Below are positions 2,696 to 61,058 of a stretch of 64,000 nucleotides of DNA, one piece after another. The stretch is from Acholeplasmatales bacterium (lineage in GTDB: Bacteria; Bacillota_I; Bacilli_A; Acholeplasmatales; Anaeroplasmataceae), in the NCBI GenBank assembly GCA_016288855.1, contig JAEELJ010000028.1, positions 379 to 64,378 on the forward strand, read 5' to 3'. The notes beneath the pieces are model-generated. The model searched no databases. It was not told where the DNA came from and worked only from the letters and a program-made list of their open reading frames with translations. Positions within the stretch are counted from its first letter, which is position 1. Every line of letters begins with the position of its first letter. Both the position numbers and the translations under genes were made by a program.

Positions 2696-3469
2696 TTAAA
2701 TTACATATTCTGGATTCCTTAAGACATGCATTTTCTCAAAGAATTTCTTTGTTCTTTCATTTTTAGGGTTTTCAAACACCTCTTCTGGTGTTCCATCCTC
2801 TATAATCTTACCCTTATCTAAGAATATAACTCTATTAGAAACCTTTCTTATAAAGTCCATTTCATGTGATACTAATATCATTGTATATCCTTGATTTTTC
2901 ACCTTTTTTATTATATCTAAAACTTCACCAATCAATTCTGGATCTAGTGCAGATGTTGGTTCATCTAACAATATAATATCTGGTCTCATTGCAAGTGTTC
3001 TTGCGATAGCAATTCTTTGCTTCTGTCCTCCACTTAAATGCTTTGGATAATGGTCTTTATGGTCCTTTAATCCAACATTTTCAAGCTCATTAAGTGCAAT
3101 CTCTAAAGCTTCATCTTTTTTTATATGCTTAACTATTCTTAAACCAGATATAACATTTTTTAATGCAGTTTTGTGTTCAAATAAATTAAAATTTTGAAAC
3201 ACCATTCCTGTTTTCTTTCTTATCTTTATAATATTTTTCTTATCTTTTCCTTTTAGTGGGAATGAAACCATTATATCTTCATCCCCTTTAAATACGATTG
3301 TTCCTTCTTCAGGATGCTCTAAATAATTAATGCATCTTAACAAAGTAGATTTGCCGGTTCCTGATGGTCCAATGATTCCAATTACATCACCCTTATTAAT
3401 ATCAAGATCAATTCCATCTAAGACTTGATTATCTTGATATTTTTTCTTAAGTCCTCTAATCTCAATCAT
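2696..3469 (-). CDS. polar amino-acid ABC transporter, ATP-binding protein
   Basis: Walker A GPSGTGKST, signature LSGGQKQR, Walker B IILLDEPTSALD. GlnQ/TcyC-like length (257 aa). Confidence 0.9.
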   Translation of the reverse strand: MIEIRGLKKKYQDNQVLDGIDLDINKGDVIGIIGPSGTGKSTLLRCINYLEHPEEGTIVFKGDEDIMVSFPLKGKDKKNIIKIRKKTGMVFQNFNLFEHKTALKNVISGLRIVKHIKKDEALEIALNELENVGLKDHKDHYPKHLSGGQKQRIAIARTLAMRPDIILLDEPTSALDPELIGEVLDIIKKVKNQGYTMILVSHEMDFIRKVSNRVIFLDKGKIIEDGTPEEVFENPKNERTKKFFEKMHVLRNPEYVI

Positions 3470-26589: not shown

Positions 26590-26695
26590 AAAAAAAGCCA
26601 GTTGTCCTTTTGCAACTGGCTGTCTTTTTTGGAAATCCACCTAAAGACCCTATAGCTTTGCGTCATAAGATTGCTCTTACTTTGCCCATAAATAA
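26590..26695 (-). promoter_or_regulatory. c-di-GMP-I (GEMM-I) riboswitch with intrinsic terminator, leader of operon 2
   Basis: Minus-strand RNA: GGGCAAAG[GUAAGA-GCAA-UCUUAU]GACGCAAAGCUAUAGGGUCUUUAGGUGGAUUUCCAAAAAAGACAGCC. This is followed by AGCCAGUUG-N8-CAACUGGCU plus U7 (26590-26621). The GCAAA / GNRA-capped hairpin / GACGCAAAGC core is the GEMM-I signature. Confidence 0.8.
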
Positions 26696-26913
26696 AAGTA
26701 GTTTAATTGCAAAACAACTAATCCTAGAACGAAAAACTAAATTAACTTTAACCTTTACTAAGTTCAGTATAAACGAAAAACATTTAAAAGTCTAGTATTT
26801 TTTAATTAATTTTTAACTTTTTATGCATGTAAGTGTTAAAATTATCTATTTTATTCAAATTGTAAATATCTTTCTGATTTGAAGTATAATTCTTATTTTA
26901 TATTATTTTCAAA

Positions 26914-27891
26914 TTAAAATTTATTAACATCAATAATACTCTTCCAACCAAACTGTGGCCCATTAGGAAGTGGAAAACCTAATGAATCATATATTTGTTT
27001 CATAGAAACAACATTCAAATGTCTCCTTAGCACCCTTAATATATTATTAATACCTATATAAAAATCTTTGAAATCACTTTGAGTTAACATGTATTTAAAG
27101 ACTAAAACCATTGAAAACAAATCATTTTTTCCAAAAATATAATGTCCAAGACCGTCTTTTTGAATATTCATTTTTTTATGTATAGGCATATCTGATATTT
27201 TCTTATCCATATCATATATTCTATAAAACATTATTCTATAATCATGTGCACATACATTTCGAAACATATTTATCGTTTCCAAAAAAGATTTTAACTGTGT
27301 AAATGTTAAAGAGTAATATTTATTTGCAATATAATCTCTAATCGATTGTTTCATATTAATCAAAAAGATTTTTAATGTACCAAATTCAAATGTATTTACT
27401 AAAGCCCAAATAGGTACAATCTCTGCAGCAGATGAGAAATGATTTATCATATCATCATGACTATCATTTTTCACTCTACTTGCGTTATTAGTAATTTTAT
27501 TAATCATACTAGAAACATATGTAGGCTGATTTATTGTAGTTATAAGATCGAATGAAGATGGAATTGTCCATTTATCAGACCCTTCCGTTCTGGCGAATTC
27601 ATGTGCAACATGACGACGTAAAGTATCTTCTATTATTAATATATAACGCAAAATTAAGTTTTTTAATTTCTTATCGAAGTTATTGATAGCAATAACCTCT
27701 TCGAAATATAAATTTGAAACATAATGCTCTGGTTTTATTGTTGTATCTACAAAAAGAGATTTAAAACCATTAATTATATTGTAGTAATTCGTATTTTCTA
27801 GAACACTTTTAGCTTTAGGAATGCTTTTAAAATTCATTCCTTTATTTTGTAATTGATTAATTTGTTGATTTACTGAATAGTATGGTCTCAT
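26914..27891 (-). CDS. Abi_2 (AbiD/AbiF-like) abortive-infection family protein
   Basis: Start at 27891 (MRPYYSVNQQINQLQNKGMNF...ENTNYYNIINGFKSLF) with GGGAG 6 nt upstream. This N-terminal pattern and the later CAHDYR motif are typical of the Abi_2 family. Confidence 0.7.
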   Translation of the reverse strand: MRPYYSVNQQINQLQNKGMNFKSIPKAKSVLENTNYYNIINGFKSLFVDTTIKPEHYVSNLYFEEVIAINNFDKKLKNLILRYILIIEDTLRRHVAHEFARTEGSDKWTIPSSFDLITTINQPTYVSSMINKITNNASRVKNDSHDDMINHFSSAAEIVPIWALVNTFEFGTLKIFLINMKQSIRDYIANKYYSLTFTQLKSFLETINMFRNVCAHDYRIMFYRIYDMDKKISDMPIHKKMNIQKDGLGHYIFGKNDLFSMVLVFKYMLTQSDFKDFYIGINNILRVLRRHLNVVSMKQIYDSLGFPLPNGPQFGWKSIIDVNKF

Positions 27892-27989
27892 ATGTTTCTC
27901 CCAATAAAAAAATGAGCAGCCCTTCTTGCCACAATTGTGCATCGGTTACCCTTTTTCTAAGAAGTTCACACTCATTACTGTTCAATACT

Positions 27990-41996: not shown

Positions 41997-42006
41997 AATT
42001 GCCCTC

Positions 42007-42735
42007 CTAGTTACTAATGAATAATGACTTAATGCTTAAGCCTTGGAATTGATAATAACTATCTATAATATCATCACCTGTAGATACAAATGATAACGCA
42101 AAATAATCAATTGATGTAGTAGTTAAAACTGTGTAATCAAATATTGCAGTTTCAAGTGATTGAGCAACATCACTACCAATACCCTTAGGTACATCATTTG
42201 TAATTATAGGAGATGTATATAATTTAAATACATCTTCAATTTTATAATCATCTAATTCAACTGAATATTCACCAGAATCTTCAGTAATTGTATATAAAGT
42301 TTTTTCCTCGTTATCTTCTGTAACAGTAATATCAGAAGTTTGAGACTGATACATAACTACATTGTTATATAATACAGAATAATTTGTACTATAAGTTGCA
42401 GTAACAATTTCTTGATTTAATACAGATGAAATACCTGTAAAATGAGCACTATATTCACTATTAGCAGTTAATCCGTCTGCAACAAGCTTAAAATATATTA
42501 CATCATCAGGCCAAGCTTCAACAGAAAGCTCTCCATCAGATCTAATCCATTGCTTAGATACCTTATCCCAGTAGTATAATTTAAATTCAGCTGTATTGTC
42601 TTCTGTTTTACCAATAATTCCAGTTGCCTTTACAGAATCATTTGATATATACCATGCCATCAATACAGTTACAAGAAGGAATCCAGTAACAAATAAAGAT
42701 GCTAATGATAATATTAAATTTAAATGCTTCTTCAT
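42007..42735 (-). CDS. TasA/camelysin-sized exported protein with a SipW-type-like leader (operon 1, gene 1)
   Basis: Start at 42735 (MKKHLNLILSLASLFVTGFLLVTVLMA|WYISNDSVKATGIIG) with AGGAGG upstream. The tracked 42786 start would overlap the leader terminator. Confidence 0.6.
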   Translation of the reverse strand: MKKHLNLILSLASLFVTGFLLVTVLMAWYISNDSVKATGIIGKTEDNTAEFKLYYWDKVSKQWIRSDGELSVEAWPDDVIYFKLVADGLTANSEYSAHFTGISSVLNQEIVTATYSTNYSVLYNNVVMYQSQTSDITVTEDNEEKTLYTITEDSGEYSVELDDYKIEDVFKLYTSPIITNDVPKGIGSDVAQSLETAIFDYTVLTTTSIDYFALSFVSTGDDIIDSYYQFQGLSIKSLFISN

Positions 42736-42784
42736 AATTCCTCCTAAAATAAATGTAATACCTAAAGGAAGTTTTTTGGGCAAC

Positions 42785-42875
42785 AAAAAAACCAGTCCTT
42801 CATAATAGCAACTGGCTGTCTCATTAAGACCCTATAGCTTTGCGTCACAGGATCACTCCTGCTTTGCCTAAAACA
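42785..42875 (-). promoter_or_regulatory. c-di-GMP-I (GEMM-I) riboswitch with terminator-like hairpin, leader of operon 1
   Basis: Minus-strand RNA: AGGCAAAG[CAGGA-GUGA-UCCUG]UGACGCAAAGCUAUAGGGUCUUAAUGAGACAGCCAGUUGCUAUUAUGAAGGACUGG plus U7. It shares GACGCAAAGCUAUAGGGUCUU and GACAGCCAGUUGC exactly with the copy at 26590-26695. Confidence 0.75.
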
Positions 42876-43125
42876 CAATGTACACAAGACTAAATGCACA
42901 TTCTAAAATCATATTACAATAATACATTTTTCATTTTATACTCATTTGACATATTTGTCTATAAAAAAATGAATATTATTTTTAATTCATAACAAAAACT
43001 AACAAATGTAAACTTTTTTACGATTTTTATTATATCATAATTATCTCATATATTATAAATAATATATGAATTATTTTTATGGAATAAACTTTAAAATAAT
43101 GATATACTCTTTTTGGGTGATTTTA

Positions 43126-44784
43126 ATGTTTGATGGAATTTACTTATCTAAAATAAAAAACGAATTATTAATTCTTGAGACAGGAAGAATTTCTAAGGTC
43201 AATGAAATATCTGATACAGATTTTATTTTTACCATTAGAGCTCAAAGAAAAAATTATAATTTATTAATATCATTATCAAGTGAATACTCAAGAATCCATC
43301 TTGCAACAAGAATTTATGACAATGTGTTATCACCACATGCATTTACAATGCTTTTAAGAAAGCATATTGAAGGTTATTTTATTGAAAATATCAAAACTTA
43401 TAAATCTGATAGAATTATGTCTTTTACTTTAAAAGGATATAATGAAATGCAGGACCTAACTACTAAATATTTATATATAGAGGTTATGGGTAGATATTCT
43501 AATTTAATATTAACTGATAAGGATAATTATATCATCGATGCCCTAAAGCATGATGGTGTATCAGAATTCCAAAGAACAATTCTACCTAACGCATTATACC
43601 AGGTTTTAGAATCAGGTAAGCTAGATCCATTAGAATATAGCCAAGATGAATTAGAAAATATATTTAATGAAAGAAATATTAAAACACCAAAGGATGTTAT
43701 TAATAATTTTAATGGTGTTTCACAAAATATATTATTTGAAACATTTAAATCTGATTTTTATGCTAATAAATTCTATTCGTTACTTCATCTAGATAATAAT
43801 CCTTCAATAATTATTAATCCTAAGGGTAGGGAGGATTTTAATTATAATCCATATTCATATGAGGTAGTTAAATCATATGATACATTATCTCAAGTATGTG
43901 AGGAGTTCTTCTATTTATCTGACCAAAAGGCCAAGGTTAAGCAAAAAACAGGAAATCTATTACAGTTTATAGAAAAGAAAATAGTAAAGCTTAATGATAA
44001 GCTTGCAAGACTAAACCAAGAGCTTATTGAAACACAAGAAATGGATTCTATAAGAATTAAGGGTGAGCTTTTACAAACAGTTTTAGGAATACATGAAAGA
44101 AAGAATTCAGTTAATGTATTTAATTACTATGATAATACATATATTGATATAAAGCTTGACCCAGAATTAACTGTAATTGAAAATTCTAAAAAGCTATTTA
44201 AAAAATATGAAAAAATAAAAACATCAGTTAAGTTCATTCAGGAACAAATTGAAATCACTAAAAGTGAAATAGATTACTTCAATGAATTAAAATATGAAGT
44301 AGATGTTGCATCATTAAATGAGGCATTACAAATTAAAGATGAATTAATTGAAGGTAAATACTTATTTGAACAAAAATCAAATAATAAAAAGAGAAAAGAA
44401 AAGCCTCATCTTCTAACATATATCCTTCCATCTTCTTCTTTAGTATCTGTTGGTAAAAACAACATTCAAAACAATTATTTAACATGGACATATGCAAAAT
44501 CCAATGAATTATGGTTTCATGTTAAAGACCAAACAGGAAGCCATGTTGTATTACATAAGACAGATGATATAACTGATGATGATATAAGATATGCTTCTAT
44601 GATTGCGGCATTTTATTCTTCTTCAAGGGACTCTTCTAGTGTCGCAGTTGACTACACCCTAATAAGAAACATTAAGAAGGTTCCAGGAAGAAAAGGCTCA
44701 TTTGTAACATATAAGAATCAAAAAACAATTTATATTGATCCTGATAAATCAATAATTGATAAATTGGAGGTAAAGCGTATATGA
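43126..44784 (+). CDS. rqcH: ribosome quality-control protein RqcH (NFACT / FbpA family)
   Basis: Start at 43126 (MFDGIYLSKIKNELLILETGRISKVNEISDTDFIFTIRAQRKNYNLLISLSSEYSRIHLA) matches the RqcH/YloA N-terminus. Central coiled coil and C-terminal NFACT-R-like ..WFHVKDQTGSHVVL... Confidence 0.85.
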   Translation: MFDGIYLSKIKNELLILETGRISKVNEISDTDFIFTIRAQRKNYNLLISLSSEYSRIHLATRIYDNVLSPHAFTMLLRKHIEGYFIENIKTYKSDRIMSFTLKGYNEMQDLTTKYLYIEVMGRYSNLILTDKDNYIIDALKHDGVSEFQRTILPNALYQVLESGKLDPLEYSQDELENIFNERNIKTPKDVINNFNGVSQNILFETFKSDFYANKFYSLLHLDNNPSIIINPKGREDFNYNPYSYEVVKSYDTLSQVCEEFFYLSDQKAKVKQKTGNLLQFIEKKIVKLNDKLARLNQELIETQEMDSIRIKGELLQTVLGIHERKNSVNVFNYYDNTYIDIKLDPELTVIENSKKLFKKYEKIKTSVKFIQEQIEITKSEIDYFNELKYEVDVASLNEALQIKDELIEGKYLFEQKSNNKKRKEKPHLLTYILPSSSLVSVGKNNIQNNYLTWTYAKSNELWFHVKDQTGSHVVLHKTDDITDDDIRYASMIAAFYSSSRDSSSVAVDYTLIRNIKKVPGRKGSFVTYKNQKTIYIDPDKSIIDKLEVKRI

Positions 44785-45593: not shown

Positions 45594-46574
45594 ATGGGAA
45601 TAGAAAATGAAGAAATACAAATAAAAGAACTAAATAATGAAACAATTGAATCTATGATTTATATTATTAGGGGTCAAAAAGTAATGTTAGATTTTGAATT
45701 AGCAAAAATATATGGGTATGAAACAAAGAATTTTAATAGGCAAGTAAAGAATAACATAGATAAATTTCCCGATGATTTTAGATTTATTCTTACAAAAGAA
45801 GAGATTGAAATCGTGGTGAGGTGTAAAAATTTCACCTCACGAAGTTGGGAACATTCTAATGAAGGAGGAAGAAGATATCTTCCTTATGCCTTTACTGAAC
45901 AAGGAATATATATGTTAATGACTGTATTAAAAGGAGAATTAGCCACTAAACAAAGTATTGCATTAGTACGTGCTTTTAAACAAATGAAAGATTATATTAT
46001 AGAAAATAATAATCTAATGTTAAATACTAATTCTTATATTGAATCTAGGTTTTCAACATATGATAAAAGATTTGAAGTAATTGAAAATAAGCTTGAGGTA
46101 GTAATGGATAATTTTATTGATCCTTCAAAATATAAGCACTATCTAATTAAAGATGGTGAAAGGATTGAAGCTGATATTGCATATCAAGAAATATATATAA
46201 AAGCTAAATATTCAATTTATATAATAGACGATTATATAGATATTAAAACATTACAATTATTAAAATGTATTAATAGTACTATTACTATAATTGTAATTAC
46301 TGATAACAAAGGTAAAAACAATCTAAATCCTAATTTTATTAATGACTTTATAAAAGATACAGGATTTAATATAATATTTAAATATAACAATAGTAAATTT
46401 CATGATAGATATATAGTAATAGATTTTAACACTAACGATTATTCTTTATACCATTGTGGCACATCATCTAAAGATTCAGGTAATAGAATAAATACAATAA
46501 TGAGAATAGATGATAAGAATCCATATATATCATCTATAAATAAAGTACTTAATAACAAAAATATAAATATATAA
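45594..46574 (+). CDS. ORF6N (KilA-N-related) DNA-binding domain protein with a degenerate PLD-like C-terminal domain
   Basis: The N-terminus IRGQKVMLDFELAKIYGYETKNFNRQVKNNIDKFPDDFRFILTKEE is the ORF6N signature. The C-terminal KFHDRYIVID...YHCGTSSKD resembles an HxK(x)4D...GSxN PLD motif with K replaced by R. Confidence 0.65.
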   Translation: MGIENEEIQIKELNNETIESMIYIIRGQKVMLDFELAKIYGYETKNFNRQVKNNIDKFPDDFRFILTKEEIEIVVRCKNFTSRSWEHSNEGGRRYLPYAFTEQGIYMLMTVLKGELATKQSIALVRAFKQMKDYIIENNNLMLNTNSYIESRFSTYDKRFEVIENKLEVVMDNFIDPSKYKHYLIKDGERIEADIAYQEIYIKAKYSIYIIDDYIDIKTLQLLKCINSTITIIVITDNKGKNNLNPNFINDFIKDTGFNIIFKYNNSKFHDRYIVIDFNTNDYSLYHCGTSSKDSGNRINTIMRIDDKNPYISSINKVLNNKNINI

Positions 46575-49704: not shown

Positions 49705-50643
49705 CTAGCTTAATCTAGATATATTTATTAATAATTGTGTTTTGAATCTTTCTTTGAAGTCAGCATCTAACATAGAATCATCGATTATAGAGACATATTC
49801 ATTTTTTAGTCCAATGAATCTATTGATGATTCTATTAATTACTTTTTCATCTAAACCAATAGAAATTCCATACTTAACGAAATCACCTTTTCTTAAATTT
49901 CTCTTTTTTCCATTAATAGTTAATGCAAGATCTTCATTATCATCTTTAACTAAAAGCTTAGCTGGTAAAAGATCATATGCAGGAGATAATTCAATATCTC
50001 CATTTTTCTTTTCAATTAAAGAAAAATTTTTTAAATGCATATCAGAATTACATGTGATGAAAGAAAAGACTATTCTTTCAAACAAGCTTACAGTATCTAA
50101 TTTCTTTATTGAACTATATTTTTCAATTATTTTAGCACATCTTTCATATGAGCTTTTATATTTATCTTCTGTTAGTCTTTCACTTAACTGACAAAAATCT
50201 TCCATATGTATTTTAGAGTTTTCTTTTCTGTCGACTCTTTTAGATATGTAAGCATACTCATTATCCTTCATCTTTAGTAACCCAAATGGACAAACAGATA
50301 TTTTACTTATTCTAGCCATATGCATTACAATAAATTCTGAAATGGGAGCCATTGGGTATTCTTGAGGTTTTGGCTTTAAAATATAGCCTAATGGTTCCCC
50401 AATTAAAGTAAGTCTACTTGTCGTTTCGCATTTCTCATAATGTAGTGACATTTTGCTTTGTACACCAGTGACTGATTTTTTACTTTCAAGCATGCCACTA
50501 GCATATAAAGCTACATTTGACTCTTTCAAATCAAATTCAGGCATTTCTTGATATCCAAAGAAATTCTTTAGACATTTTTTATGCCAATAGTAAGGTTCAT
50601 CGTTAGAAAGCTCCTTAAAGCAGCATAAGCATCTATTTTTCAT
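49705..50643 (-). CDS. hipT: HipA-family Ser/Thr kinase toxin lacking N-subdomain 1 (HipT-like)
   Basis: Start at 50643 (MKNRCLCCFKEL...) with AGGGGTGA RBS. Catalytic-loop CNSDMHLKNFSL and SPAYDLLPA match HipA D-x-H-x-KN and the Mg-binding D. Confidence 0.75.
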   Translation of the reverse strand: MKNRCLCCFKELSNDEPYYWHKKCLKNFFGYQEMPEFDLKESNVALYASGMLESKKSVTGVQSKMSLHYEKCETTSRLTLIGEPLGYILKPKPQEYPMAPISEFIVMHMARISKISVCPFGLLKMKDNEYAYISKRVDRKENSKIHMEDFCQLSERLTEDKYKSSYERCAKIIEKYSSIKKLDTVSLFERIVFSFITCNSDMHLKNFSLIEKKNGDIELSPAYDLLPAKLLVKDDNEDLALTINGKKRNLRKGDFVKYGISIGLDEKVINRIINRFIGLKNEYVSIIDDSMLDADFKERFKTQLLINISRLS

Positions 50644-50962
50644 TATCTTCACCCCTAACGCTAACAGCACCAATTGTATCTCTACATACCTTTAGTAATA
50701 TTCCCATTCTATCCTTCCTATCAAGACTCCACTTTGATATCGCAAGATCTAACAGATATCCTTCAGGTATTAATCCATCAAAAAAAGGGAATAAAACCTT
50801 TGAGAAATAACTTTTTTGCTTTTTACTCATAGTCAATGAAATAGCAGGATTATCACTTATTAAATATTCTTCATCGTAATTGAAAACAAAGCCATCATCT
50901 GTCTCAATTATATCTCCTGCATATATATCTTCATAATAAACATGCCCAACTCTACTCATCAT
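50633..50962 (-). CDS. hipS: HipA N-terminal subdomain protein (HipS-like)
   Basis: VGHVYYEDIYAGDI...FNYDEEYL...AISLTMS...LFPFFDGLIPEGYLL...CRDTIGAVSV matches the HipA N-terminal (Couple_hipA) domain. ATG at 50962 with AAGGA upstream. Overlaps hipB and hipT by 11 nt each. Confidence 0.75.
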   Translation of the reverse strand: MMSRVGHVYYEDIYAGDIIETDDGFVFNYDEEYLISDNPAISLTMSKKQKSYFSKVLFPFFDGLIPEGYLLDLAISKWSLDRKDRMGILLKVCRDTIGAVSVRGEDNEK

Positions 50963-51384: not shown

Positions 51385-52437
51385 CTATTCTATTTTTTCA
51401 CCACCATCTAAATTCTTAGATAGTTCCTTTTGTTCAGAAATGAAGTCTTCAGCTTCTTGCTTAATCTTCTTGTTAGTCTTGTAATGAGTATGCTCAAACT
51501 GAGAAATAACAACCTGATTGAATGATAAGTCAATTCCAGCTTCAGTAAATACCATACGATATTCTCTTAATAAGTCACGTTGAACCTGGTATCTATCTTC
51601 TTCTTTACACTTTGCAACAATCTTAACTGCAACGTTAGAATCACCATATCCAGAAACACCCTTATAATAAGGACCTTCTACTATTGCAGGAATCTTTGCT
51701 TTAAAGTTATCAAAATTATCCTTTAATAATCCTTCAATAATTTCAATGGGTACATCATATGGGAATTCACAATCTACAACAGCTAAAGATAATTCTCTAG
51801 ACATGTTAATGACATTAGAAACATCTGAATTATTAATTATTTTAATATTTCCTGCTGCATCTAAAATCTTAGTTGCACGAATACCAATTTCAATAACAGT
51901 TCCTCTGAAATCACCAATTGTAATAATTTCACCAACATTATATTCATTTTCGAAAATAATGAACATTCCTGCAACAACATCGGCAATCAAGCTTTGGCAT
52001 CCTAAGCCTATAACTAAAGTTAGGATACCTACTGATGCGAAAATTGCTGTAGAATTTACGCCTAATGCTTGTAATAAGAAAATAATGATTGCGATAGCGC
52101 ATGCATATTTAACAATACCATCAAGTAATGTTACAACTGTCTTTGCTCTATCAGACTTTTCCATAGTCTTCTTAAAAATAAATCTAATTAATTTACATGC
52201 TGCATAAATAATAACAACATAGATTAAGCTTTCAATTAGCTTAGGAACATGTGTGTTAAATGTTGCTTGTAAATTTTCTGTATCGCAAACATATTCCTTA
52301 ATCCATTTTGCCGCTTCTGAATCTGGCATTGAAATTTCTAAAATTATTGCTGTAATGAATGCAATTAATGCTACCGCAATAATAGTTAATTCAATTATCA
52401 AAAATACTTTTTTGCTCTTTTTCTTTTCCTCTTTCAT
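51385..52437 (-). CDS. small-conductance mechanosensitive channel (MscS family)
   Basis: Start at 52437 with GGAGGGG 7 nt upstream. TM3-like GILTLVIGLGCQSLIADVVAGMFIIFEN followed by the beta-domain GDFRGTVIEIGIRATKILDAAGNIKIINNSDV. Confidence 0.85.
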   Translation of the reverse strand: MKEEKKKSKKVFLIIELTIIAVALIAFITAIILEISMPDSEAAKWIKEYVCDTENLQATFNTHVPKLIESLIYVVIIYAACKLIRFIFKKTMEKSDRAKTVVTLLDGIVKYACAIAIIIFLLQALGVNSTAIFASVGILTLVIGLGCQSLIADVVAGMFIIFENEYNVGEIITIGDFRGTVIEIGIRATKILDAAGNIKIINNSDVSNVINMSRELSLAVVDCEFPYDVPIEIIEGLLKDNFDNFKAKIPAIVEGPYYKGVSGYGDSNVAVKIVAKCKEEDRYQVQRDLLREYRMVFTEAGIDLSFNQVVISQFEHTHYKTNKKIKQEAEDFISEQKELSKNLDGGEKIE

Positions 52438-52453: not shown

Positions 52454-55400
52454 TTATTCTTCAACTGTTATTGTATATGTCTTTTCTTGGTAGTTACCAG
52501 TTGTATTACCAGTAGTTATTGTTAATGTTATTACATCACCAACTGTTACATTCTTAAAATCTAATAAGAATGCATCATTATATTGCTTACTTAATTCATA
52601 GGTTACACCATCTTCACCAATTGAACCACTTAAGTCAGTATCAACGTATGTAAGGTTCAATTCCTCACCATTATATGTCACCTTAAAATCAGTACTTTCT
52701 ATAAAATCACCTTTTATAGTATAGTAAGCTTCATAAACATTACTACTATTCTTATATGATGTAGCTGTTGTGACTGCAACATTTAATTGATTATATTCGT
52801 TCTTAGCTAATAAGAATTCATTAGTACCATCGTTATACATCATGTAAACATAACAAGAGTATTCAACATCCTCTAGATTTTCAATAGTTAATGATGGAGT
52901 TGATGTAGTATATCTTAATAAGCCGCCACCTTCAGCTCTTAATTCAACAATATAATATTCATTAGGATCTAAATCAATAGAACTATCCTCTCTAAATTCA
53001 CTAAATTCTAAATTAACAGTTCCATCTTGATTTCTTGTAACATGATATTCATTTGATGCACTAGTAACCAATCCTACAGATTTTTGATGTGTTGAAATAT
53101 CATTTTCTTGAATGCTAATCTTAAATTCCTTACCATTATCATCATAAATATCACCATTAGGTAATACATAATGATATTCAACCTCATAAATATTATTGCT
53201 TGAATCATCCTGTTCTAAATACATTACTACAGTAGTGTAATATAACGACTTACTAACTGTCTTTTCAGATAATGTATTTGGATTACCATCATTACCACAT
53301 TTACTAAATACAATTTCCCAGCCATCAAGATAAACCTCTTGACCTAGGATTGTTGTCTTAGGTAATATCTTTAAAACCTCAGTATTATCACTAAAGCCTA
53401 CACCTGAAACATATTCTGTTGCGAAATAGTAATCACTTACCATTTCAACCTCAAATACCTTCTTAGCAATATAAGATAGGCTTGCAGTATTACCATATGA
53501 ATCAGTATATTCTCTTGTTATAATGAATTGAATTTCATTAGAATCAATAGCATCTATTGTAATAGAACCACTATCTACAGGTACTATTTCATTCTCATTA
53601 TAAGAAATTAATGTAACATCATTTGTATTATTAGTATAATCTAGGGTAATTACACCTTCATCATTAATACTATAATCGCCAAATGTTATTGCGTTAGTAT
53701 CATCCTTAGTGTATGTATATTTACCTGCAAGATAATCAATACCATTATTATTAAAATAAATTTCAAATTGAAGCTTTTCTATATTAGTATATGCCTCAAG
53801 TCCATTGACATTAGAACCCTCAGAGGTAAGCTCTGTAACTGTTCCATCACTAGTTGTTATAAAATATTTAATTTGTGAAATTTCAACACCATCTACTCCA
53901 ATTGCGCTAAAACTATATGCTTCCTCTTCAAATGATAAAGAAACATTATCAATATATGTTTTCTTTTCTAATTCAATTTCACCACAATCAACTGTGTAAT
54001 AGTCTAATGTGTATCCATCATACATTTTATAATATATTAATTTAACTTGAAGCTTATCATATATAGGAGATAGATATTGTCCATATCCATCTTCTATTTC
54101 TAATACTAATTCACCATTATAATAATATTCAAATCTATATTTTTCTCTTCTATCATCAGTATTAAAGTTTTCAACCTCTGCCTCTAAATAATATTCATCA
54201 TCATATTTTGTCTGATCAAATTTATAAGTTAGATCGGTAACATCAATACTATATTCACATAAATTTAGAGTTACTTCCTTTGCTTCTACTTCATCTTCAA
54301 TAGAATAATTTGAATAATATTTTGCTAATGAATAATTAACCTTAACCTGAACTGTATCTATAACTATTTCATAATCGAATAGCTTTAATGCTACAGTTAT
54401 TGTTTGATTTAATGAATCAGAGCAATCTACATTAACATTATATTGATATAATGAATTCTCTTCAAAGTATGAATAATAATCTCCATCTGCACCTAAAACA
54501 ACATCAGGTGAAGTTTTAGATTTAATAGGAATTTGGTAAGTCTTACCATCATATGAAATATTGATGTCATCTCCATCAGTAAGCATATTGTAATTTAGAG
54601 TAAATTCAATATATGTGTCATCCCCATCCTGATATAAGACATCTGAATTTTCTTGTAATAAAGTAGATTCATCTATTTCCTTTAATTCATAATAAACCTT
54701 ATCTTCATAATAGTAATTATTATAATAATACATTACTGAATAGCTGAAATTATATTCATATCTATCATCTAATTCTAATTCATATGTTGATGTATTGAAA
54801 TATGGTGTATATCCATATTTAACCTCTCCATCAACAACATATGAATAGAATATTCTTTCATAAATTCCATCTCCATCAGTTGAATTATCCTTAAATCCAG
54901 TATCGAAATAATATAAAGCCTTACCTTCATTAGAAGATTGTCTTTTGAAATAATATATATTAGTATTAGATTCAAAGCTATTTCTATCATGATTACTATT
55001 CTGATATGCATTTAATACATCACTTGCGAATGATGCTGTTACAATAGAATTATCAAATCCATCAGTTCTAACGATATATTTAATTTGGTATTTATTAACA
55101 CTCTCGCTATAATTATCGTCAGGAATTCTAATAGAATAGAAATTACCTACCTTAACATCAGTATTATCTGCTTCTTCAATAGATGATTCTTCTATTACAT
55201 AATCACCATCATTCATTACAGTCCTATCAGTTATAATATCTAGATCCATGTTGATATTTTTACCATTAAGTGTAGTAATGAAATCTAGGTTGTAGAAAAT
55301 CATACTATTGGCGTGCATTACATAAGATACTACCTCAATCTCTGCACCTAAATCGTCATTTCTAACCTCAGAAATAATTAATATTTCATCACCATATATA

Positions 55401-57166
55401 TCCTTATATGTGATTTTAATATTACCAGAAATTAAATTCTTATTTATTTCTTCAATTTCTAATACACCTTCACTTAATAAATCAGATAATGTAATATCAG
55501 TCCCATCAAAGAATTCAACCTCTGCAGAGCTAAATTCATAACCATCTAGGGCTTTTATCTCATATGGTATTAATAATGCACCATCATCAGAAACATCAAC
55601 TGTACCTAATTCTACCTTATTTGGAATTAATGTATTTTGATATAATTTAATGCCATTATGTGATATTACAAATGAAACACTTGAAATCTCATCTGTAACC
55701 TGGAATTCATTTGCATAATCTAGGCTCTCAAATGTATCAGTTTGAGTAATAGAATTACCATCAATAAAGTTCATTGTAATTTCAATATCAAATGATGGAT
55801 CTATAATCTCTCCATCATATGTTGCACTAAAATTAAATCCACCTTCATAGAATTGTGCATATACATCTTTAAATAAAGAATTAAATTTATATTCTATCTC
55901 ATTAGAATCAAACTCAGTAATTAAATTACCATCCTTTTTAATTTCTACCGCAACAATTCTAATTTCTTTATAGATAGGATCAATTACAGTAGATAATAGA
56001 CCATCCTCAGATTCAACTGATTTTATTAATTCTTCACCATTATAAATATCAAATCTTAATGCGTCAGTCTTATCATAGCCCTTTTGGAAATTAGTATCGA
56101 TATTTAAGGTATTTCCTACCTCAATATCATAATCATATGAAATATTTTCTTCCTTTAATTCATATTTAGAAGTAAATCTATTTTTATATGAAATGAAATC
56201 ATCTGGATATTCTGTTTTATATCCATATTCAGAAAGTAATGTTCTTTCTCCATTAACATCACCATATACCCTTGCATTTATTTCCTGCATATCGGATAAA
56301 TCCTCTAATTGACCTCTAAAGAAGTTTTCCTCATCAAGAGTAAAATCCTCAATTATTAATTCATCCTCCATATATATTTCAAGGCTTGGATTAGATGCTA
56401 AATTATAATAATTTGAAAAATAAATATCATAATCAAGACTAAAAACATAATTATCATAATCTACTACAGGATTAAATTCAAATAATGCCTTAGGCATTTG
56501 ATCAGTTACAGTATAACATGTTGTCTCAAAATAAGTATTATCCTTAAATACACCAAAATCACCTATTACTGAAATAGTATAGGTTCTTAATGGAATAAGA
56601 CCTGTAACTAGCTGCTTTTGAATTCCTGCTTCCTCTATAGGGAAATCTATAGAGAAGTTACCACTAGATACTCTAATTATGCAGTTCGCAACACTATTAA
56701 TTTTATCAATATCAATTTCATAAATTAAATAATCAGCACCAACCTCAATATTACAAGATTTAATATCTGGCTTTGGTAAAAATATTCCTCCACCCATTGT
56801 ACCTGCAACAACTGCGGCAGCTGATAAAACTGTAATACCACCAGCAAGTGTTGTTGATGTTGAAACTACATTTGCAGCTGTGCTTTCAGATGCACCTACA
56901 TTTAAATCAACATTATTTAATTCACTACTATTAACATTATTTATTTCATTAACATCTGTTTTAGATAAATTATTTATCTCATCAATTTGCTCTTTTATTG
57001 TTTTAGAAGTCTTAGTATCCTCACTAGAATCTTCCTTATATGCTTGTTGCTCTAAAGGAGAAGATTTTACTTCATTAACATTAAAATATTCAATAGGTTC
57101 AAATGTTTTAAATTCAGAAACATCATCATTATATTCATTTATCCCATTATTATACTCATCAGGCAT
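52454..57166 (-). CDS. 1570-aa single-pass (N-in) membrane protein with a large repeat-containing ectodomain
   Basis: GGGAGGAAG RBS. About 105-aa acidic/Asn-rich N-terminal region, a single TM (GGITVLSAAAVVAGTMGGGIFL), then about 1440 aa with at least one internal module duplication. Confidence 0.75.
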   Translation of the reverse strand: MPDEYNNGINEYNDDVSEFKTFEPIEYFNVNEVKSSPLEQQAYKEDSSEDTKTSKTIKEQIDEINNLSKTDVNEINNVNSSELNNVDLNVGASESTAANVVSTSTTLAGGITVLSAAAVVAGTMGGGIFLPKPDIKSCNIEVGADYLIYEIDIDKINSVANCIIRVSSGNFSIDFPIEEAGIQKQLVTGLIPLRTYTISVIGDFGVFKDNTYFETTCYTVTDQMPKALFEFNPVVDYDNYVFSLDYDIYFSNYYNLASNPSLEIYMEDELIIEDFTLDEENFFRGQLEDLSDMQEINARVYGDVNGERTLLSEYGYKTEYPDDFISYKNRFTSKYELKEENISYDYDIEVGNTLNIDTNFQKGYDKTDALRFDIYNGEELIKSVESEDGLLSTVIDPIYKEIRIVAVEIKKDGNLITEFDSNEIEYKFNSLFKDVYAQFYEGGFNFSATYDGEIIDPSFDIEITMNFIDGNSITQTDTFESLDYANEFQVTDEISSVSFVISHNGIKLYQNTLIPNKVELGTVDVSDDGALLIPYEIKALDGYEFSSAEVEFFDGTDITLSDLLSEGVLEIEEINKNLISGNIKITYKDIYGDEILIISEVRNDDLGAEIEVVSYVMHANSMIFYNLDFITTLNGKNINMDLDIITDRTVMNDGDYVIEESSIEEADNTDVKVGNFYSIRIPDDNYSESVNKYQIKYIVRTDGFDNSIVTASFASDVLNAYQNSNHDRNSFESNTNIYYFKRQSSNEGKALYYFDTGFKDNSTDGDGIYERIFYSYVVDGEVKYGYTPYFNTSTYELELDDRYEYNFSYSVMYYYNNYYYEDKVYYELKEIDESTLLQENSDVLYQDGDDTYIEFTLNYNMLTDGDDINISYDGKTYQIPIKSKTSPDVVLGADGDYYSYFEENSLYQYNVNVDCSDSLNQTITVALKLFDYEIVIDTVQVKVNYSLAKYYSNYSIEDEVEAKEVTLNLCEYSIDVTDLTYKFDQTKYDDEYYLEAEVENFNTDDRREKYRFEYYYNGELVLEIEDGYGQYLSPIYDKLQVKLIYYKMYDGYTLDYYTVDCGEIELEKKTYIDNVSLSFEEEAYSFSAIGVDGVEISQIKYFITTSDGTVTELTSEGSNVNGLEAYTNIEKLQFEIYFNNNGIDYLAGKYTYTKDDTNAITFGDYSINDEGVITLDYTNNTNDVTLISYNENEIVPVDSGSITIDAIDSNEIQFIITREYTDSYGNTASLSYIAKKVFEVEMVSDYYFATEYVSGVGFSDNTEVLKILPKTTILGQEVYLDGWEIVFSKCGNDGNPNTLSEKTVSKSLYYTTVVMYLEQDDSSNNIYEVEYHYVLPNGDIYDDNGKEFKISIQENDISTHQKSVGLVTSASNEYHVTRNQDGTVNLEFSEFREDSSIDLDPNEYYIVELRAEGGGLLRYTTSTPSLTIENLEDVEYSCYVYMMYNDGTNEFLLAKNEYNQLNVAVTTATSYKNSSNVYEAYYTIKGDFIESTDFKVTYNGEELNLTYVDTDLSGSIGEDGVTYELSKQYNDAFLLDFKNVTVGDVITLTITTGNTTGNYQEKTYTITVEE

Positions 57167-58374: not shown

Positions 58375-59823
58375 TTAAATAAAATCATATTTATCTAAAA
58401 TATTATTGTTTTTACAATAATTCTTAAAATCTAATAATTTATTATCTATTTCTTCTCTTGTAATATCTATTGGATACATTTCATAGGTATAATTTTTATT
58501 TATTTTATATTTAGCATTCATACCTATTAATTCACTAAATGAATCAGTTATATAGCTATTACTAAATTCTCTATACTTCTTATCCTGCTTCCAAGTGAAG
58601 TTTCTTTCATATTTAAAATTTATTGTCTTTTTGTAATAAGAGAATCCTAAATCATCACGCTTATATGTAGTAATACCATCTGAATAATCATATATATTTA
58701 TATCATTATAATCTATCCATATTTCTTCTTCAGTATAGCTATTTTTAATATTAGTTCTAATTGAAATAATATTTAATAATGATGTTAATTCATCATAATC
58801 TATCAAACCATCTTCATAATCTCTAAAAAGATAGTTAATTGCATCATAATTAGATTTTTGCTTAATAATTAAATAATTTGATGTTAATTCAATACTTCCC
58901 TTAAATACTCCGTATTTTTCATAAATATCATTATAATAATAATTTGGATTAATAAAATTAAATATTAAAAAGTCTCTAGAGTTAAAATTTTCTTCTCCTA
59001 CAGCCAATGTTTGAATTTCTGTTCTATAATGTAAAAACTCAGGTCTATATTTTAAGCCTCCAGAGGTATATTCTTTTTTCATTTTGGAATAAAGATCAAT
59101 ATTATCATTAGAACTAATATTTAAATAAAATGCTTTATTATCATCATCTGGCATTAAATACTTCCATTCATAATCAGATACTTGATCTAAAAATGTTGAA
59201 TAGCCTAATGGATATGTTGTTGCATATTCAAATAAATAATTACCATCATCTATACCATAAAAGTTATAATTACCTCTATCTTTTGCTTCTAAATTTTCTT
59301 CTAGATTAATATCACCTTCATTTGATGTTGCTTTATCTATAGTTTTAGTAATTAAATTACCATTACTAAATGTACCACCACCATTACTTATATATATAGC
59401 TGTATTAGAATCTACTTCATAGCTATAATCTCCTATATAGTCAATTCTATTAGAGGTTGGATAATTTTCTTTATAAGTACTATAATTATATTTCATTTTA
59501 GTATATAAAGGGTTTATTACACTATTAGTTGCATTTGGAACAATAGTATCTTTATAGTGAGTAAAAAACTTATTATATACATCATTAAATGTATCATTTT
59601 TAGTTATTGTAATATTTTCAATTTCACCATTATATACAATATCAAAAGATATCTCATCGACCTTATTTCCTTTAACTAAATTATTAGTATATAAATCTTC
59701 TAATTTATCTTGATCGATACTTGTTGTTTTTTCATTTATATCTCCTTTACCACAAGAGGCTAACAAAGAAATATTTAAAGGGATTAAAATCGATAATAAA
59801 GAGATTTTAAATATTTTTCTCAT
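58375..59823 (-). CDS. lipoprotein of unknown function
   Basis: Signal peptide with lipobox LLASCGK. 482 aa, rich in Asn/Tyr/Asp. Confidence 0.6.
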   Translation of the reverse strand: MRKIFKISLLSILIPLNISLLASCGKGDINEKTTSIDQDKLEDLYTNNLVKGNKVDEISFDIVYNGEIENITITKNDTFNDVYNKFFTHYKDTIVPNATNSVINPLYTKMKYNYSTYKENYPTSNRIDYIGDYSYEVDSNTAIYISNGGGTFSNGNLITKTIDKATSNEGDINLEENLEAKDRGNYNFYGIDDGNYLFEYATTYPLGYSTFLDQVSDYEWKYLMPDDDNKAFYLNISSNDNIDLYSKMKKEYTSGGLKYRPEFLHYRTEIQTLAVGEENFNSRDFLIFNFINPNYYYNDIYEKYGVFKGSIELTSNYLIIKQKSNYDAINYLFRDYEDGLIDYDELTSLLNIISIRTNIKNSYTEEEIWIDYNDINIYDYSDGITTYKRDDLGFSYYKKTINFKYERNFTWKQDKKYREFSNSYITDSFSELIGMNAKYKINKNYTYEMYPIDITREEIDNKLLDFKNYCKNNNILDKYDFI

Positions 59824-59945
59824 AAGTACTTAGTATAACCTAATTAAAATTAAGATTATACATCCTCCTTCTTTAAAATTAGCATACTAAAAATGTGAAC
59901 TTTCCTAATGTTTTATCCTTATTTAAATTAATTATTTCATACACT

Positions 59946-61058
59946 TTATGATAAAGAAATCGGTGGGATAATATTATCAACCATATCTATAACGAATTCA
60001 TATGCGTCAGTATATACTACTGGATCTGGATTAATATATGGAACCTTCTCATATGTATTGTGATATGAATAGCCTGTTGCTTCAAATTTTAATTTTGTAG
60101 AAGAAATGTATAATTCTTCTTCATCATATGTATTATTCACTGTATTGATTTCGTATAGGTATCTTTCAAAAGAACCATCTTCCTTATTGTAATATAATGT
60201 TCCATTAAATGTGCCCGGGAATATATCATTATCAATCATAATTTCTTTAATACCCTCATCATTTAAGTCAAATGATAATTCCAAATACTCTTCTCCTTCG
60301 CTAATAACGATATTATTATTTTTTATAAAATCACTTATTTCTTTATCATTTTTAGTTAATAAGTCTCTACAGATATCATAATATAGACCATCAAGAAATT
60401 CAGTGCATTCTTGTCCATCAAAGGCACATATTCTTTGAATTGTATCTGTTAACCATGAAGTGGATACAACCTCAAGTAATGCTTCTTTATTAACCTTACC
60501 ATTGAATTTTTTTTCTAAATAAGGTTCATTTACATACTCATCATATAATTTAAGGTAATTATATACTTGTAAATCATTATCATCAAAAAGTGAATTTAAG
60601 TTCTGAATAAAATTAAAATCTTGTGTTTGGTTTTTTTCAAGACCATCTACTAGTTCAGAAGAGAAAGTATTGATATGGGCACTTTGAAGCAATGAATAAT
60701 TACCAGGACCTCTAGAAATGAAATCAAAAGGATTTACATTTTCTTTTTCCATAATATCTTCATATTCTTCCTGAGTTACACTATAGTAATATCCATAAGT
60801 GCCAGTTCCTGAATATCTATAGAAATCAATACCTTTATCTTCTTCATCTCCATATGAATTCATATAAGAAACGTAATCCTGTTTGAACATTGCGCTAAAC
60901 ATTCTCTCATAGAATGGTGATAAATCCTGTTTATCGAGTAAAGTTTTAAATTCATCAACTTCTTTTTGATTATCAATTTGTAAATTTTCTTTATTATTAC
61001 AAGAAGCTAATGTAAGTAAGTTTGTTAGGATTAAAAACATAAATATGATTTTTTTCAT
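59946..61058 (-). CDS. lipoprotein of unknown function
   Basis: Signal peptide with lipobox LTLASCNN. 370 aa. Confidence 0.6.
   Translation of the reverse strand: MKKIIFMFLILTNLLTLASCNNKENLQIDNQKEVDEFKTLLDKQDLSPFYERMFSAMFKQDYVSYMNSYGDEEDKGIDFYRYSGTGTYGYYYSVTQEEYEDIMEKENVNPFDFISRGPGNYSLLQSAHINTFSSELVDGLEKNQTQDFNFIQNLNSLFDDNDLQVYNYLKLYDEYVNEPYLEKKFNGKVNKEALLEVVSTSWLTDTIQRICAFDGQECTEFLDGLYYDICRDLLTKNDKEISDFIKNNNIVISEGEEYLELSFDLNDEGIKEIMIDNDIFPGTFNGTLYYNKEDGSFERYLYEINTVNNTYDEEELYISSTKLKFEATGYSYHNTYEKVPYINPDPVVYTDAYEFVIDMVDNIIPPISLS

Follow-up and report, generated by a model that had tools for sequence, protein, structure and literature searches.

The locus and its genes

The window considered here, that is the whole 64-kb stretch of DNA that was analysed, has a G+C content of 27.9% and belongs to an organism of a little-studied low-GC lineage. 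For the regulated genes, the nearest named relatives come from an Anaeroplasmataceae MAG and from an Anaeroplasma sp. MAG. When the whole window was scanned against Rfam 15 (4227 families) at the gathering thresholds, two matches were obtained, both to RF01051 (c-di-GMP-I, GEMM-I) and both on the minus strand, at 42804-42878 and at 26608-26696.

The first match lies ahead of operon 1, which comprises three genes for small proteins and a giant one, all on the minus strand. The first gene (42007-42735) encodes 242 aa, with an N-terminal membrane helix and then a beta-rich domain; the second (41996-41229, 255 aa), the third (from 41201 or 41219 to 39939, about 420 aa) and the giant gene (39930-28129, 3933 aa) also encode proteins with an N-terminal membrane helix, and the 3933-aa protein has a high content of T, S, N and Y. 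Three small genes followed by a giant one (about 3900 aa) are likewise found in the related contigs L001, L002 and L004-L006.

The second, paralogous c-di-GMP-I riboswitch (26608-26696, minus strand; 61.3 bits to RF01051), which has a full-length P3, a GCAA loop and G at the position of G20 of the V. cholerae aptamer Vc2, is followed by a second surface-protein operon (operon 2, 26522-15571, minus strand). The first gene of the latter (26522-20250, minus strand) encodes an aBig_2 protein of 2090 aa, which is accompanied by a 1008-aa protein (aBig_2 and LRR matches being found in this pair) and by two small proteins. A homologue of this first gene, 40% identical, is found in an Anaeroplasma sp. 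MAG (contig L015, 3261-1) right after a short-P3 GEMM-I aptamer with its core at about 3310-3347. The five small proteins of the two operons (242-426 aa) share an N-terminal membrane helix and, after it, a motif of the type [A/G]-W-Y-x-x-(N/T)-D, which in operon 1 reads AWYISND, GWYVRTD and, in the third protein, AAYTFTK; the giant proteins of both operons measure 3933, 2090 and 1008 aa. Operons 1 and 2 are paralogous sets under the same control.

An Abi_2 (abortive-infection-like) gene (26914-27942, minus strand) stands alone between the two riboswitch-controlled operons, and an ORF6N/Rha-like phage regulatory gene (45594-46574, plus strand) and a HipA_C toxin-like kinase gene (49705-50673, minus strand), both near the operon, are hints of nearby insertions of a mobile or defence-related kind. 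Farther along the window, a 1570-aa ORF (52454-57166, minus strand) and ORFs of 482 and 370 aa (58375-61058, minus strand) have no Pfam match; they adjoin a family 2 glycosyltransferase gene and, at the Rfam gathering level, lack a riboswitch upstream. Among the scanned ORFs of at least 150 aa of the 64-kb window, a set that leaves out the ORF at 51746-52207, no GGDEF, EAL or HD-GYP gene was found, and synthesis of c-di-GMP by the host is therefore only assumed.

The leader of operon 1 presents, on one strand and in this order, the aptamer, a predicted intrinsic terminator, a ribosome-binding site (RBS; AGGAGG, 42745-42740) and the ATG of the first gene (42735), i.e. the aptamer occupies a 5' cis-regulatory position, which is kept in the orthologues. 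The U run of the terminator ends 49 nt before the start codon, in agreement with the distance of about 50 nt given in an earlier, sequence-only reading of this DNA. Upstream of the aptamer, a candidate sigma-70-type promoter (TAGACA, 17 nt, TAAAAT; 42933-42961, minus strand) was found in a consensus scan with 10 of 12 matches, for which the evidence is weak, promoter-like sites being no more numerous in the region than in shuffles. Directly 5' of the aptamer there is a hairpin (UGUGCAU...GUGUACA, 42879-42900, minus strand) that is stable in folding and may act as a 5' stabiliser. Hairpins of other sequence are seen at the same place in two orthologous leaders (L010 and L001) and before the second copy in the window (26704-26720).

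Identity of the aptamer

The match of the operon 1 leader to RF01051 at 42804-42878 (minus strand) reaches 56.5 bits (E = 2.3e-8), the gathering score being 35, and spans the full model (positions 1-87 of 87), with all of the conserved model nucleotides intact. The sequence-only reading had proposed a c-di-GMP-I riboswitch on account of a series of sequence elements, all of which are indeed present on the minus strand where it had placed them; the covariance-model search that it had called for gives this score, above the gathering threshold, and compensatory changes in the orthologues, described below, bear the proposal out as well.

On the minus strand, the junction element AGGCAAAG (42869-42862) leads into the P2 hairpin, in which 6 bp (GCAGGA/UCCUGU, 42862-42857 with 42852-42847) are closed by the loop GUGA (42856-42853), a GNRA tetraloop of the GYRA type, as seen both in the sequence and in the Rfam alignment. 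The GACGCAAAGC junction follows (42846-42837) and, then, a short P3 (42810-42839), which sequence, Rfam model and alignment agree in describing as an AGCU/AGUU base, GG/CC pairs, an AG bulge and a GUCU/AGAC top with a UAAUG loop. Its distal part, GGGUCU and AGAC around the UAAUG loop (42832-42818), continues with AG and CC to 42814, and the CU:AG pairs at the top (42828-42827 with 42821-42820) coincide with the place of the canonical receptor in the model. Under the two-hairpin definition of GEMM (PMC1950547), which was used for the structure test, the window RNA has the AAA linker and a first hairpin of 2 bp, a 3-nt internal loop, 6 bp and a GNRA loop. A closing P1 helix, which is outside the Rfam model, is poorly defined: only A-U and U-A pairs, followed by mismatches, can be drawn beside G20/C92.

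The ligand-contacting positions of the window RNA are, in the Rfam alignment, those of the c-di-GMP set of Vc2. G is found at the G20 position (42868; model position 11, before the GC of GGCAAA), A at the A47 position (42841; the first A after GACGC) and C at the C92 position (42808; the first C of the consensus UgCC, after the P3 3' strand). A47 is taken here, from the Vc2 crystal structures, to stack between the two bases of the ligand. G20 recognises one ligand guanine and C92 forms a Watson-Crick pair with the second; G20 is the c-di-GMP determinant, which in Vc2 discriminates against cGAMP, and A at position 20 is found in cGAMP-sensing or bispecific GEMM-I RNAs, a clostridial example included (PMC6140456). 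Membership of the window RNA in the GEMM-Ib cGAMP group, which requires A20, was rejected on the basis of the G at 42868.

Other RNA models were also considered. That of class II (c-di-GMP-II) has no match in the window at the gathering level or at E <= 1. The GGC variant RF03167 scores 49.7 bits on 42803-42877 (minus strand), under its gathering score of 59; its model has G at the A47 position, and this defining G of GACGCGAA is replaced by A in the window RNA, which reads GACGCAAA, so that membership was rejected. The low RF03167 score and the A at the A47 position together identify the RNA as a standard 'GAC' c-di-GMP-I aptamer. In the E-value mode of Rfam, clan competition returns RF03167 instead of RF01051 for the window RNA. 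The RF03167 consensus has a short P3, by which the score is inflated on standard aptamers with a short P3, and this could cause mis-annotation.

When the isolated aptamer was folded alone, the Rfam structure was not reproduced by free energy and the z-score was only -0.45. This is a caveat, although the result was taken to be uninformative because GEMM-I folds depend on the ligand and on tertiary contacts. The RF01051 match is no chance match, and the sequence is that of a genuine but ordinary c-di-GMP class I riboswitch.

Conservation in orthologous leaders

For the 242-aa protein encoded just downstream, 5.8 billion sequences contain no more than eight clusters of homologues. In 11 metagenome contigs, corresponding to six distinct leaders, an RF01051 match of 51-61 bits precedes the gene of this first protein, which is 32-99% identical to that of the window. 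One contig (L006) starts inside the aptamer, and its visible part agrees. Relaxing the cut-off to E <= 1 brings up no riboswitch in the most distant operon (L002/L003; 40% identical, from an Anaeroplasmataceae MAG).

In an alignment of eight leader sequences, the second riboswitch copy of the window included, 18 of 18 aptamer pairs are paired in all of the leaders (100% of 144 pair cells), and six of them show compensatory changes on both sides, four of these being in the 6-bp P2. This level of pairing and covariation is reached by none of 500 shuffles, and slid registers are paired to 23-44%. The compensatory changes in the aligned leaders show selection for the aptamer fold, in orthologues down to 32% protein identity. 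The P2 loop is GUGA, GUAA or GCAA in the relatives, always a GYRA sequence.

Position 20 of the ligand site differs among the leaders. G is present in the window RNA, L014 and L007, and A in four of the six distinct orthologous leaders, namely L010 (102-176), L001 (2640-2714), L011 (609-683) and L004 (1755-1830). The occurrence of G20 in L007 versus A20 in L011 implies a flip between close relatives. A20 in the leaders of sister lineages could reflect rewiring from c-di-GMP to cGAMP, or dual sensing.

The short P3 and its probable tetraloop partner

In the Rfam alignment, the distal P3 of the aptamer at 42804-42878 has 2 nt in place of 14 model positions. The second hairpin is thus truly short, as had been remarked from the sequence, where the RNA was taken for a possible minimal variant lacking a tetraloop receptor. 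To put this truncation in context, aptamers were collected from one genome per species with the pattern ACGCAAAGCTATAGGG-N(6-36)-CAGCCAGTTGC, which yielded at least 120 loci, the window RNA being outside this sample; the matches listed are spread across Bacillota, Anaeroplasma, Acholeplasmatales and Mariniplasma MAGs included. The length of the variable part of P3 (GGG to CAGCC) is bimodal among the 118 matches listed, being 10-14 nt in 54 and mostly 19-26 nt in the rest, and it is 11 nt in the window RNA. With 54 short forms out of 118, the short P3 is a common natural subtype, and of the earlier description the truncation stands but the unusualness does not. Aligned to the consensus, the window RNA places its CU on that of the receptor segment guCUAAg, which means that the truncation takes away only the part of P3 past the receptor position. 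Consistently, the second riboswitch of the window has a long P3 and its orthologue in the Anaeroplasma MAG (L015) a short one.

As to the receptor itself, natural tetraloop-receptor pairs fall mainly into two classes, GYRA/helix and GAAA/11-nt (PMC7913685), and GEMM RNAs with a GYRA loop and without the 11-nt receptor were already noted by Weinberg et al. 2007 (PMC1950547). Features of the GAAA/11-nt type (CCUAAG...UAUGG-like) are absent from the window RNA, which has a GUGA loop and a P3 reading UCU-UAAUG-AGA, with no platform or bulged U. It has instead those of the GYRA/helix class, i.e. the GUGA loop and CU:AG. The same holds for the orthologues, in which GUGA, GUAA or GCAA is found with CU:AG, or, in L004, GUAA with CC:GG. 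The association is also seen in the wider sample, as CU:AG or CC:GG is present at the receptor position in 17 of 18 GYRA aptamers versus 11 of 78 GAAA aptamers among the matches listed (Fisher p = 1e-10, with phylogeny ignored), and 56 of the 78 GAAA loops listed go with xCU...AUGx, which is 11-nt-receptor-like. The window RNA is, therefore, probably not receptor-less, contrary to the remaining part of the earlier description; it would have a weaker, helix-type partner for the GUGA loop in the CU:AG pairs. The link between GYRA loops and CU:AG or CC:GG, and the free loss of P3 past the receptor, are relevant to how receptor-less GEMM-I RNAs fold in three dimensions.

The commonest short P3 form among the 118 cores listed is NCU(G/U)UAAAAUGN, which is found with a GAAA loop and resembles the 11-nt receptor (CCU...AUGG) in miniature, capped by a hairpin.

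The terminator and the direction of switching

The predicted intrinsic terminator (42785-42817, minus strand) has a stem that pairs 42817-42810 with 42797-42790 around a 12-nt loop, and is completed by seven U residues (42791-42785). Its core, CCAGU/ACUGG (42815-42811 with 42796-42792), consists of 5 bp, three of which are G-C. By consensus rules, a terminator with a 5-bp core and a 12-nt loop is weak, and a simple terminator scan of 42000-43600, with a loop limit of 3-8 nt, returned nothing, the 12-nt loop being beyond this limit. Energy minimisation of the leader yields the hairpin AGCCAGUU/GACUGGUU with U7 behind it, and the terminator is 93% paired across the eight aligned leaders.

One and the same stretch (42817-42810) serves as 3' strand of the aptamer helix P3 and as 5' arm of the terminator, so that aptamer and terminator are mutually exclusive. 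This overlap is kept in all of the orthologous leaders, in the Anaeroplasma MAG and in the second riboswitch of the window, the terminator of which (GCCAGUUG/CAACUGGC and U7) overlaps P3 as in the first copy. Enforcing P3 makes the best fold of the leaders 7.4-13.1 kcal/mol less stable than the terminator fold (7.8 kcal/mol for the window leader). The latter would thus be the default state, which ligand binding has to prevent at an energetic cost. From the overlap between P3 and terminator an ON switch is predicted, a direction on which the sequence-only reading had been silent. The same design is documented elsewhere: an overlap of the terminator with a GEMM hairpin was reported in 78 of 322 GEMM RNAs, with the prediction that the ligand raises expression (Weinberg et al. 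2007, PMC1950547), and Bc2 of B. thuringiensis, a class I riboswitch before an adhesin gene, is an ON switch in vitro and in vivo (PMC4933901). Among the matches listed, a terminator overlapping P3 was found in 23 of 120 Bacillota aptamers by a fold-based classification, which was used instead of a strict regular expression that gave 7 of 120.

The following course of events can be proposed. The transcript would begin at an upstream start, perhaps the promoter-like site at 42961-42933, and the aptamer would be made first, with P2 and its GUGA loop, the GACGCAAAGC junction and the short P3. When present, c-di-GMP would be bound via G20 (42868), A47 (42841) and C92 (42808), with the GUGA loop probably docking on the CU:AG pairs at the top of P3; P3 would be locked in this way and its strand AGCCAGUU (42817-42810) kept occupied. 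When the ligand is missing, AGCCAGUU would pair with GACUGGUU (42797-42790) to form, together with U7, the intrinsic terminator, and transcription would stop 49 nt before the start codon. High c-di-GMP would, then, turn on the operon, i.e. production of the three small membrane-anchored, beta-rich proteins and of the 3933-aa protein, presumably a surface or adhesion apparatus. The RNA at 42785-42878 (minus strand) is, in short, very probably a c-di-GMP class I riboswitch that acts on transcription as an ON switch.

Past the terminator, CUUCCU (42771-42766) is able to pair with the RBS AGGAGG (42745-42740) on the minus strand, with 6 bp and a 20-nt loop. An extra layer of translational masking is possible at this point; the pairing is not seen in the L010 or L001 leaders.

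Opposite polarity has to be considered for a real aptamer of this class, with the ligand favouring termination as in Cd1 of C. difficile, which precedes flgB. OFF switches are common among the class I riboswitches of Clostridia, and in 42 of the 120 Bacillota aptamers among the matches listed a terminator-like hairpin is found further downstream, clear of P3, as is compatible with OFF designs. In the window leader, however, P3 and the terminator compete for one strand, and the liganded aptamer and the terminator cannot coexist; no separate anti-terminator that the ligand might break is visible, and the overlap design is identical in all of the orthologues and in the paralogue, which makes an OFF switch improbable. 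Another reading concerns the ligand, which could be 3'3'-cGAMP, or both dinucleotides, rather than c-di-GMP alone, as in GEMM-Ib-like RNAs. The A20 signature (PMC6140456) of L010, L001, L011 and L004, four of the six distinct orthologous leaders, speaks for such a specificity, but both copies in the window carry G20, which discriminates against cGAMP in Vc2 (PMC6140456), and, A20 RNAs outside Geobacter being often bispecific, even the A20 orthologues may still sense c-di-GMP; for the window RNA this reading is slightly less probable still than an OFF switch.

The least probable reading, to be given very little weight, is that the RNA is a decaying or non-functional relic, or that control is mainly translational, through the CUUCCU/AGGAGG hairpin and with no riboswitch involved. 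The truncated P3 and the weakness of both terminator and P1 would fit a relic, as the ability of CUUCCU (42771-42766) to pair with the RBS would fit translational control. Decay is, however, hard to reconcile with conserved model nucleotides that are all intact and with compensatory changes extending down to 32% protein identity, and the short P3 is shared with a common subtype; the anti-RBS pairing, in turn, is unlinked to the aptamer and missing in the L010 and L001 leaders. A c-di-GMP-responsive ON switch is, therefore, the reading retained in the following.

The regulated proteins

The proteins of operon 1 have no match in Pfam, NCBIfam, PHROGs or PDB sequences, the Pfam search of the regulated proteins having been carried out both strictly and at E <= 5, and no collagen-binding or LPXTG-type domains were detected in the regulated proteins. 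The AlphaFold2 model of the 242-aa protein (pLDDT 77.5) predicts a membrane helix and a beta-sandwich, which has no Foldseek match in the PDB at E <= 0.001. A TasA/camelysin-like fold had been suspected from the N-terminal motif and is not supported, the TasA fibre appearing only at rank 32 (E = 0.53) in the Foldseek results.

The operon products presumably have a surface or adhesion role, as this fits the usual logic of c-di-GMP. The broader idea that both riboswitches may switch on a so far undescribed surface-fibre or adhesin system in Anaeroplasmataceae-like bacteria of the gut or rumen, made of small beta-sandwich proteins and giant proteins of 1000-3900 aa, is put forward tentatively and is, on balance, rather doubtful. 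In the literature searched, no paper joins Anaeroplasma, c-di-GMP and riboswitch.

For RNA biology the gain is small, the riboswitch class being well studied, and the subtype and the expression platform having been already described. The more interesting leads are outside the RNA, namely in the uncharacterised operons, and in the G20/A20 flips among the orthologous leaders. What the riboswitches would provide is a functional label, by which two large uncharacterised operons can be marked as putatively c-di-GMP-induced, and so as probably belonging to attachment or to a surface-associated lifestyle.

Comparison with known systems

The window RNA shares with Vc2 of V. cholerae, the prototype of RF01051, the GGCAAA junction, GACGCAAAGC, the AAA linker, CAGCC, UGC and the G20/A47/C92 set, and with Vc2 and RF01051 in general a P2 made of 2 bp, a 3x3 internal loop, 6 bp and a GNRA loop; like other members of the class, it is found in the 5' leader of genes for envelope proteins. 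Unlike in Vc2, P3 ends right past the receptor position, with a 5-nt loop, P1 is weak, and the GAAA loop with its receptor motif is replaced by GUGA and a plain CU:AG helix. In this respect the RNA resembles the type depicted in Fig. 2B of Weinberg et al. 2007, in which a GYRA loop is found without the 11-nt receptor and the terminator overlaps the right-hand hairpin. About half of the receptor-less RNAs of those authors have an extra bulged A, whereas the window RNA has the AG bulge and the CU:AG helix, the latter being the proposed partner of the GYRA loop. A short P3 is also a feature of RF03167, from which the window RNA differs in its score (49.7, below 59) and in the A at the A47 position. 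With the GEMM-Ib (3'3'-cGAMP) RNAs of Geobacter the fold is shared and, in several of the orthologous leaders, A20 as well, but the window RNA has G20.

A functional parallel is offered by Bc2 (B. thuringiensis/cereus), which precedes the collagen adhesin gene cap/cbpA and in which, as in the window, a class I aptamer is followed by an intrinsic terminator. The regulated proteins of the window are unrelated to the collagen adhesin, and the host lineage is a different one, low-GC and Anaeroplasmataceae-like. For Bc2, the promotion of read-through by c-di-GMP ahead of a surface adhesin gene is an experimental result (PMC4933901), whereas for the window RNA the same behaviour is predicted.
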